From assembly GCF_024298765.1 (NCBI RefSeq), contig NZ_CP101210.1: a stretch of DNA of 64,000 nt. One strand, 5' to 3'. Below are positions 7,385-10,507 of this stretch, one piece after another; the first letter of the stretch is position 1, and every line of letters begins with the position of its first letter. The notes under the pieces were generated by a model. It saw nothing but the letters and a program-made list of their open reading frames with translations, was not told where the DNA came from and ran no database searches. Both the position numbers and the translations under genes were made by a program. This stretch comes from Escherichia coli. GTDB lineage: Bacteria > Pseudomonadota > Gammaproteobacteria > Enterobacterales > Enterobacteriaceae.

Positions 7385-8408
<1,024 letters not shown>

Positions 8409-8771
8409 GGTAATATTAAATCGGAACATTTACATCGCGGAATGTAAAATTTAAATAAAAAGGACTCTTCCATGAGCCAAAATTCCTGAAATCTTAAGGG
8501 TAAGATAAAAGGTCTTAATCAGAATGACACGTTTTATTAATAAATAAAGCTATTCTTTCATTGCTGTGTTTTTCTTTACAAAAGTAATCCTTGCTATGGG
8601 TGGTTAATCATGCGTTAATGGTGTTCTGGTTTGTTACAAATTTATCTGAAGCAGTCATTTTTATAATTTTATTATTTGTACCTCTTGAGATTTCCTTGTT
8701 GGTTTTTCTCTCTGATATTTTTTTTTCGGACCATTCTGCCCAAGGGCTAATTTCTTCAAAAGGTAATAATT

Positions 8772-8984
8772 ATGTCTAACAAAATGACTGGTTTAGTGAA
8801 ATGGTTTAACCCTGAAAAAGGTTTTGGTTTCATCACGCCGAAAGATGGCAGCAAAGATGTGTTTGTCCATTTCTCAGCAATTCAGAGCAACGATTTCAAA
8901 ACATTAACTGAGAATCAGGAAGTTGAATTTGGTATTGAGAACGGACCTAAAGGTCCTGCCGCTGTTCATGTAGTGGCGCTTTGA
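8772..8984 (+). CDS. cspI: cold-shock protein CspI-like
   Basis: 70 aa [70 protein letters not shown]. Confidence 0.8.
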
Positions 8985-9015
8985 GGTAGACAATATTACA
9001 AACCATATTCACTTT

Positions 9016-9183
9016 AGATGCCCGTGTTGTCATGGTTCCCAGTATAGAACATCATCTTTTGATGTTTCTGACATGAATCCTTTCGGGGCAAAATGTATCT
9101 TTTGTAAATCAATGATGATTACATTTGATAATATTTCACAATACTTAAATGCCAGCCGTCTGTCGTTGGATTTAAAAAAGTGA
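9016..9183 (+). pseudogene. YnfN-like small zinc-ribbon ORF without a canonical start codon
   Basis: Open frame encoding ...RCPCCHGSQYRTSSFDVSDMNPFGAKCIFCKSMMITFDN...; no ATG/GTG/TTG between the upstream TAG (8971) and the first Cys codon; followed by a strong terminator. Confidence 0.3.
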
Positions 9184-9187
9184 AAAT

Positions 9188-9213
9188 GAAGGCTCCTTCG
9201 GGAGCTTTTTTGC
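9188..9213 (+). terminator. intrinsic terminator
   Basis: GAAGGCTCC-TTCG-GGAGCTTTTTT. Confidence 0.6.
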
Positions 9214-9255
9214 TTGGTGTCTATTCGATGGATACTCACATACTACGGTAACATC

Positions 9256-9486
9256 ATGAAAAAAATCATAGTTTTTTTTAACTCTGAACCAGCAGTGGTA
9301 GTGTCAGCGATGACTGGAGTTAACACCATCATGCGTGAATATCCAAATGGCGAAAAAACACACCTTACTGTAATGGCCGCAGGGTTTCCATCTCTGACCG
9401 GAGATCATAAAGTCATTTATGTAGCCGCGGATCGACATGTTACTTCAGAAGAAATTCTGGAAGCAGCAATAAGGCTCTTGAGTTGA
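9256..9486 (+). CDS. hypothetical small protein (76 aa)
   Basis: ORF from ATG 9256 (MKKIIVFF...); no recognised motif. Confidence 0.3.
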   Translation: MKKIIVFFNSEPAVVVSAMTGVNTIMREYPNGEKTHLTVMAAGFPSLTGDHKVIYVAADRHVTSEEILEAAIRLLS

Positions 9487-9654: not shown

Positions 9655-9831
9655 ATGATGAATATTGAAGACTTAAAAACAAAAGCAGAAGCAGATATTT
9701 CTGAATATATAACAAAAAAAATTATTGAACTTAAGAAAAAGACCGGGAAAGAAGTTACCAGTATTCAGTTTACCGCACGGGAAAAAATGACGGGTCTTGA
9801 AAGCTATGATGTCAAGATTAATTTAATCTGA
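9655..9831 (+). CDS. gnsB: GnsB-like small protein
   Basis: Translation MMNIEDLKTKAEADISEYITKKIIELKKKTGKEVTSIQFTAREKMTGLESYDVKINLI resembles GnsA/GnsB; AAAAGAGG ahead of the ATG. Below the ORF-track length cutoff. Confidence 0.65.
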   Translation: MMNIEDLKTKAEADISEYITKKIIELKKKTGKEVTSIQFTAREKMTGLESYDVKINLI

Positions 9832-9982: not shown

Positions 9983-10507
9983 TTAGCGTGGTAAGATCTG
10001 TGTAGTTTTCTGGATGCTTTCAGTAAATAGTAATGAGTTATCAAAGGCATAGTAATATCTTTGGTGTTCCTGGATATTTGTAACCCATCGGAAAACTCCT
10101 GCTTTAGCAAGATTTTCCCTGTATTGTTGAAATGTGATTTCTTTTGATTTCAACTTATTATAGGAGGTCTCTATAAGATGTTTGTTTCTGGAGAATTTAA
10201 CATTTACAACCTTTTTGAGTCCTTTTACTAACACTATGTTGTCGTTTTCTAACACAATGTGAATATTATCTGTGGCTAAATAGTAAATATAAAGTGAGAC
10301 ATTGTGACGTTTTAGCTCAGAATAAAATAATTCACAGTTTAAATCTTTACGCACTTGATCGAATATTTCTTTAAAAATGGCAGCCTGAGCCATTGGTAAA
10401 CCTTCCATGTGATACGATGGCGCGTAGTTTGCGTAACAAAGTTGAGCCTTGCTGGCATCCAGGAGGGATATGCAACCGACAGATGTATGTAAGGTCGATG
10501 TACTCAA
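9983..10507 (-). CDS. ydfO: YdfO-like protein (DUF1398 family, as recalled)
   Basis: ORF at the Qin ydfO position; true start may be an internal Met (near 10408 or 10393). Confidence 0.45.

Follow-up and report, generated by a model that had tools for sequence, protein, structure and literature searches.

How is a protein made from a reading frame that offers the ribosome no canonical start codon? The question is raised by a short frame in the 64,000-nucleotide stretch of Escherichia coli DNA analyzed here (contig NZ_CP101210.1, hereafter the window). The frame encodes a protein with a CPCCHG...CIFC signature and closes with CIFCKS...LDLKK and a TGA codon at 9181-9183. Our reading of the translation from 8971 to 9183 confirmed the observation that first drew attention to it, namely that, from the in-frame TAG at 8971 to the first cysteine codon (TGC 9019), the frame lacks ATG, GTG and TTG; the 15 codons from the TAG to the cysteine are tgg cgc ttt gag gta gac aat att aca aac cat att cac ttt aga. 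An ATG at 9018 does lie in another frame, as had been noted, and encodes only nine codons (MPVLSWFPV-stop). The original prediction described the frame as a ynfN-like gene that either had lost its start through a point mutation or small frameshift or initiates at a non-canonical codon such as ATT 9007.

The frame belongs to a gene that has already been catalogued under another name. A megablast search found the 271-nt region from 8960 to 9230 in 2,143 of 5,426 complete E. coli genomes, with 100% identity to K-12 derivatives such as TG1 and MC4100, and three annotated CDSs lie under the match in the K-12 records and in MG1655: cspI, ynfQ (alias ymcF, “cold shock small protein YmcF”) and ynfR. 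The MG1655 coordinates of ynfQ (b4724, 1638256..1638444 complement) correspond to 8995-9183 on the plus strand of the window, a CDS of 62 codons plus TGA whose first codon is ATT. K-12 also carries a paralogue, ymcF (b4723), similarly arranged 10 nt downstream of cspG. The label “ynfN-like” was therefore misplaced: the gene is ynfQ/ymcF, and ynfN is a distinct gene located two ORFs downstream (9257-9486). Compared with K-12 ynfQ/ymcF, the DNA, the CDS coordinates, the ATT start, the 62-amino-acid length and the 10-nt spacing to the csp gene are alike, and the gene itself shows no differences; the surroundings differ in that ynfN is intact in the window and frameshifted in K-12.

Searches with the translated product gave the same identification. 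It matches Pfam PF23641 (YmcF-like) with 111.8 bits and E = 1.7e-32 (gathering score, 27 bits), with residues 1-62 aligned to positions 1-62 of the 62-position profile, and 132 homologous clusters were found at E <= 0.001 among 5.8 billion proteins, nearly all of them from Enterobacteriaceae, typically 62 amino acids long and labelled as cold-shock protein or YmcF. Because the Pfam match is full-length and the homologous clusters number 132, the ORF is not a chance frame. The window protein has every invariant column of the family alignment, including the four-cysteine signature F-R-C-P-C-C-H-G-S-Q-Y-R...G-A-K-C-I-F-C-K. NCBIfam yielded no specific model for the product, its sole match (ECs_2282_CxxC) being weak and below cutoff. 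Thus ynfQ is not a new gene: it, its family and its start at ATT are already recorded in Pfam, RefSeq and the reference annotation of MG1655. We consider it highly probable that the frame is ynfQ (b4724), a functional 62-codon gene of a Qin-type lambdoid prophage that forms the second cistron of the cspI transcript and starts at AUU 8995. The name has a second use in the literature: VanOrsdel et al. 2018 (PMC6001520) used “ynfQ” for another ORF, which encodes 37 amino acids and lies between ydfJ and ydfK. It is apparently the ynfT of the later y-ome paper, in which the Qin-region range opens at the same coordinate, 1632890.

YnfQ is a mini-protein with four cysteines that probably binds metal. 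The residues that are invariant in the family alignment are F7, C9, P10, C12, G14, S15, Q16, R18, S20, D23, P29, G31, A32, K33, I35, F36, C37, K38 and M41; the block from G31 to K38 is invariant, and the C-terminal tail is variable. An AlphaFold2 model (pLDDT 73.5, a moderate value) contains two short strands bearing CxxC knuckles and a C-terminal helix. Foldseek returned no significant fold match for this model in the PDB; its best hits were zinc-ribbon modules (the MqsA N-terminal domain, TFIIE-alpha and eL43), all with E >= 0.6, the best having E = 0.6 and a TM score of about 0.35-0.4, and a profile search of PDB sequences gave matches at chance level only. A 2026 review (PMC13348028) reported that YnfQ fits the rubredoxin topology in an AlphaFold-3 model. 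Like the zinc-ribbon and rubredoxin-like knuckles of the MqsA N-terminal domain, the TFIIE-alpha zinc finger and eL43, YnfQ is predicted to carry its CxxC knuckles (C9-x2-C12 and C34-x2-C37) on short beta hairpins; unlike generic zinc ribbons, it has a predicted C-terminal helix and the family-specific invariant motifs GSQYRTS and GAKCIFCK. “Zinc ribbon or rubredoxin-like metal knuckle” is a reasonable description of the modeled fold.

The gene lies within a cold-shock transcript. A cspA-type thermoregulator mRNA element, comprising the 5′ UTR and the cspI coding region, was identified at 8625-9011 (plus strand) by a match to Rfam RF01766 that covers the full model (positions 1-428) with 113.4 bits and E = 1.7e-29 (gathering score, 78); the same model also matches the E. 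coli ymcF locus and a Citrobacter locus. From the position of this match it follows that the cspI transcript begins near 8625 and continues into ynfQ. The first cistron, cspI (8772-8984, plus strand; present in the ORF list and in the RefSeq annotation of the identical sequence), encodes a 70-amino-acid cold-shock protein and ends with TGA at 8982-8984, and AUU 8995 follows 10 nt after this stop codon. Two published transcriptomes agree with this arrangement: near-identical RNA induction ratios were reported for cspI, ynfQ and ynfN (PMC11228462), and cspG, cspH, cspI, ymcF and ynfQ were reported to be co-regulated (PMC11728337). We infer a role for ynfQ in cold shock from this transcript context, as a member of a cold-shock operon; the putative induction of ynfQ by cold, which its RefSeq name implies, is supported indirectly by the thermoregulator, by RNA levels that follow those of cspI and by the cold-induced protein of its neighbor ynfR.

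The terminator that had been described after the frame was also found. A hairpin resembling that of an intrinsic terminator occupies 9189-9211 on the plus strand, with a stem formed by 9189-9196 and 9201-9208, a UUCG loop and a T-run of six at 9206-9211; the hairpin proper (9189-9208) reads AAGGCTCC-TTCG-GGAGCTTT and has a minimum free energy of -14.9 kcal/mol (z = -2.63). Four other loci, including the E. coli ymcF paralogue and loci from Citrobacter and Salmonella, keep the position of the hairpin and T-run with different stem sequences. A scan for promoter and terminator consensus sequences listed no plus-strand terminator here and reported the hairpin on the minus strand only. The terminator is probably leaky, since ynfR and ynfN, which lie downstream of it, are co-expressed. 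The first of these, ynfR (9186-9251, plus strand; RefSeq annotation), is an ORF of 21 codons that begins 2 nt downstream of the ynfQ stop codon and runs through the hairpin, and SPA-tagged YnfR was detected by VanOrsdel et al. 2018 (PMC6001520), at a level strongly raised after cold shock. At the ymcF paralogue ynfR is not conserved (there is no ATG), and in strain ST540 it is cut by a TAG and annotated as “too short”. In the window ynfN is an intact 76-codon ORF from ATG 9257 with a run of eight T at about 9272-9279; K-12 strains (TG1 and MG1655) have seven T and a frameshifted gene according to RefSeq, with MG1655 annotating the 51-amino-acid C-terminal part alone, and ST540 has the intact 76-amino-acid form. 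The eight-T run and the intact ynfN thus place the source of the window among E. coli strains other than K-12.

AUU start codons are very rare in E. coli. For ynfQ, an ATT initiation codon at 8995-8997 (plus strand) is given by the RefSeq and MG1655 CDS coordinates and by the aligned codons of the family. A Shine-Dalgarno sequence, GAGGT (8983-8987, plus strand), overlaps the cspI stop codon (tTGAGGT) and lies 7 nt upstream. The AUU is thus located where both annotation and homologues place the start, with no canonical in-frame option up to Cys9. Our survey of start codons covered 81 loci, consisting of the window and 80 loci from GTDB species representatives (of 191 confirmed), aligned on the codon eight positions before the first cysteine. 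The codon aligned with 8995 is ATT in 41 loci, ATC in three and ATG in 34, and each of the other three loci has an ATG displaced by one to three codons. Together, ATT and ATC occupy the aligned position in 44 loci. Because the ATG homologues carry their ATG exactly there, the family start is fixed at the codon aligned with 8995. The idea that initiation is non-canonical and uses an ATT was thus borne out, but the position suggested for it, 9007, was not: the codon supported by annotation, by the aligned ATG of homologues and by the GAGGT 7 nt upstream is 8995.

On the upstream side of this codon, T[A/G]AGG at the Shine-Dalgarno position is invariant in 22 of 22 aligned csp-coupled loci, and codon -4 is AAG or GAG in 37 of the 44 ATT/ATC loci. 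On the downstream side, codons 6-8 vary synonymously among loci (His as CAT or CAC, Phe as TTT or TTC, Arg as CGN and AGR), indicating that the stretch upstream of the first cysteine is translated, and substitutions in codons 6-12 of the family loci are likewise biased toward synonymous changes. Where gene callers have extended homologues upstream to a canonical codon, seven of the eight proteins have Ile opposite the start codon and the remaining one (P0115) has Ser. In two Atlantibacter loci (L040 and L064) the start reads ATT ATG, so that a canonical ATG forms codon 2. These loci may represent an intermediate state; a related locus (L072) has ATG at codon 1. In the searchable literature we found no experimental mapping of the YnfQ or YmcF start or N-terminus, or of AUU initiation for them, and the main texts of the Weaver et al. 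preprint and of Nakahigashi et al. 2016 mention neither ymcF, ynfQ, cspI or cspG nor an ATT/AUU start for these genes. According to Hecht et al., infC and pcnB are the only E. coli genes with a confirmed AUU start.

These data bear on three other ways of reading the frame. If ynfQ were a pseudogene, a zinc-ribbon gene once initiated at ATG would have lost its start to a point mutation or small frameshift and would no longer be translated. The lack of a canonical start in the frame fits this account, as do the presence of ATG at the start codon in ~40% of family members and the fact that most deposited phage records with the sequence annotate nothing there. However, ATT or ATC is kept at the aligned codon in 44 loci that include members of Escherichia, Citrobacter, Salmonella, Kosakonia, Yokenella, Trabulsiella and Siccibacter, all of which retain the full 62-codon frame and the invariant Cys, Gly and Lys residues, and the frame is intact in all 81 loci, which come from many enterobacterial genera. 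In addition, the Shine-Dalgarno sequence is conserved, the synonymous variation upstream of the first cysteine reflects selection at the protein level, and the same 5′ sequence is fixed in more than 2,100 complete E. coli genomes. The conservation of start codon, frame, motifs and synonymous variation contradicts the proposed start-codon mutation or frameshift and excludes the pseudogene reading, which we consider extremely improbable. Initiation elsewhere in the frame is very unlikely as well. ATT 9007, codon 5 of ynfQ, is in frame and near the first cysteine, but the preceding acaatattacaaacc contains no sequence resembling a Shine-Dalgarno, the ATG homologues begin four codons upstream of it, and the aligned codon is ATT, ATC, ATA, ACT or CTC in the family; because it is CTC in E. 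coli ymcF, 9007 cannot be the family start. ATG 9073, the frame's first canonical start, is where the mechanical list begins the ORF, but a protein begun there would have 36 amino acids and lack the first CxxC, dropping the invariant block of F7, C9, P10, C12, G14, S15 and Q16, and Met26 is unconserved, homologues having R, K, G or S.

An account that dispenses with a start codon altogether is that YnfQ is a C-terminal extension of CspI, produced through a +1 frameshift or bypass of the stop codon. The cspI stop lies just 10 nt upstream, and the ynfQ frame contains no stop codon from 8974 to 8995, two features in favor of a fusion. The spacing between csp and ymcF argues otherwise, as it measures 10 nt in the majority of loci, 9 nt in the seven loci of the Kosakonia group and yet another distance in L041 and L048, and this variation means that the relation between the two frames is not conserved, which excludes the fusion. 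Moreover, 34 standalone homologues that lack an upstream csp begin with ATG at this codon, and the residues encoded upstream of the ATT are unconserved, codons -1 to -3 being highly variable. We regard the fusion as hardly conceivable.

The survey also revealed an association between the start codon and the upstream gene. In 38 of the 81 loci an ATT or ATC start is accompanied by an intact csp gene ending 9-10 nt upstream, and in 36 an ATG or displaced-ATG start is found with no adjacent csp. The seven exceptions comprise six loci with ATT and no adjacent csp and one with ATG and an adjacent csp. On a neighbor-joining tree of the core codons, Fitch parsimony gave eight changes of start class and six of csp adjacency, indicating that several of the changes are independent, with the number of independent transitions being rough because the tree is based on 141 nt. 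Lineages with ATG and no csp are nested among, or sister to, lineages with ATT and csp, as in Klebsiella/Raoultella, L062, L065/73/80 and the Enterobacter group. In four aligned loci of Klebsiella/Raoultella type (L015, L023, L036 and L025), csp persists in place as a decayed pseudogene that has lost its start and acquired indels, and the Shine-Dalgarno sequence is retained ahead of an intact ymcF homologue that starts with ATG. The decayed csp copies (at about 780-1200 of each locus) were missed by tblastn and can be aligned as DNA. Some other standalone loci keep short segments resembling a csp 5′ UTR, shifted nearer the gene. Two Pseudescherichia-like loci with ATT and no csp (L013 and L033) contain an 8-codon mini-ORF, ATG AAA AAA GGA TAC TAT TAT TAC TAA, located about 19 nt upstream of the ATT and overlapping the ATT start in another frame; it is absent from the related L029. 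This mini-ORF could be a substitute coupling partner.

The association suggests that translational coupling to csp keeps the weak AUU start in use. Ribosomes that terminate on cspI, a strongly translated cistron, would be brought beside AUU 8995, through translational coupling or re-initiation, with the GAGGU Shine-Dalgarno that overlaps the cspI stop codon serving the AUU start, and YnfQ would be produced at a small, constant proportion of CspI. Loss of the csp supply would then select for AUG, and lineages without an upstream csp would have converted their start to AUG. Stated for the whole family, the start codon would act as an evolutionary switch, AUU or AUC being used only while the gene is coupled to a csp ending 9-10 nt upstream and AUG once the csp is lost or decayed. 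We put this forward tentatively and give it slightly less than an even chance. Published reporter data are relevant to it: Osterman et al. 2013 (PMC3592434) found that, at a UAA-GGU-AUU junction, re-initiation and de novo initiation contribute about equally. A version of coupling based on RNA structure is unsupported, as RNAalifold detected no conserved structure hiding the Shine-Dalgarno sequence or the ATT at the csp/ymcF junction of the 22 coupled loci, and found a 4-bp invariant helix inside csp only. This result, the seven exceptions and the shortness of the tree weigh against a simple coupling account, as does the finding that mRNAs with an AUU start do least well in the cold in vitro (PMC5499595), which sits awkwardly with a cold-shock gene such as ynfQ.

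The ATT start could also be real and yet uncoupled, serving as a throttle that keeps YnfQ low or as an IF3-dependent target as in infC, in which case the association with csp would reflect shared ancestry. The output of AUU relative to AUG, roughly 1-2% according to Hecht et al. and about 12-17% according to Osterman et al. (PMC3592434), is compatible with a throttle; IF3 discriminates against AUU, a property that infC uses for autoregulation (PMC5499595); and six loci keep ATT with no adjacent csp. This explanation nonetheless strikes us as rather unlikely, given that the association between start codon and csp repeats in several separate clades and that the in-place decay of csp in Klebsiella/Raoultella goes together with ATG.

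The arrangement at ynfQ bears some similarity to infC, in which the AUU follows directly after the thrS stop codon and the non-canonical start is phylogenetically conserved. Unlike the start of ynfQ, however, the AUU of infC is an experimentally confirmed sensor for IF3 autoregulation; there is no reason to expect autoregulation of ynfQ, and the two protein families are unrelated. If coupling to csp is correct, ymcF and ynfQ would be the third and fourth AUU-initiated genes of E. coli, with a rationale unlike that of infC, and would provide a natural, multiply replicated test case for how a non-canonical start can be maintained by ribosomes that re-initiate or are supplied locally. As the finding of a genome scan ynfQ is ordinary, since it has already been catalogued together with its family and ATT start; the link between start codon and csp adjacency may go beyond existing annotation. 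The pattern offers a cheap, testable hypothesis about coupling that permits non-canonical initiation, and we view it as a modest lead.

Gene callers routinely overlook ynfQ or assign it a wrong start. A ynfQ homologue is present in nine phage records, five of which have no annotated feature under the match, likely because gene callers ignore ATT starts. The unannotated records (H32-H35 and H37, among them Escherichia phage 2H10, mEp460_ev081 and PhiR42_1) are lambdoid and carry the homologue at 93-98% identity. Several database entries extend the homologue upstream into the csp gene.

The genes surrounding the cspI operon in the window form the standard late region of a Qin prophage together with its morons. 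Upstream lies rzpQ (7911-8408), which encodes an Rz-like spanin (DUF2514) and contains an embedded ORF in the +1 frame (8086-8358) resembling the Rz1/rzoQ lipoprotein. Downstream are a gnsB-like gene (9655-9831) and, on the minus strand, a ydfO-like gene (9983-10507).
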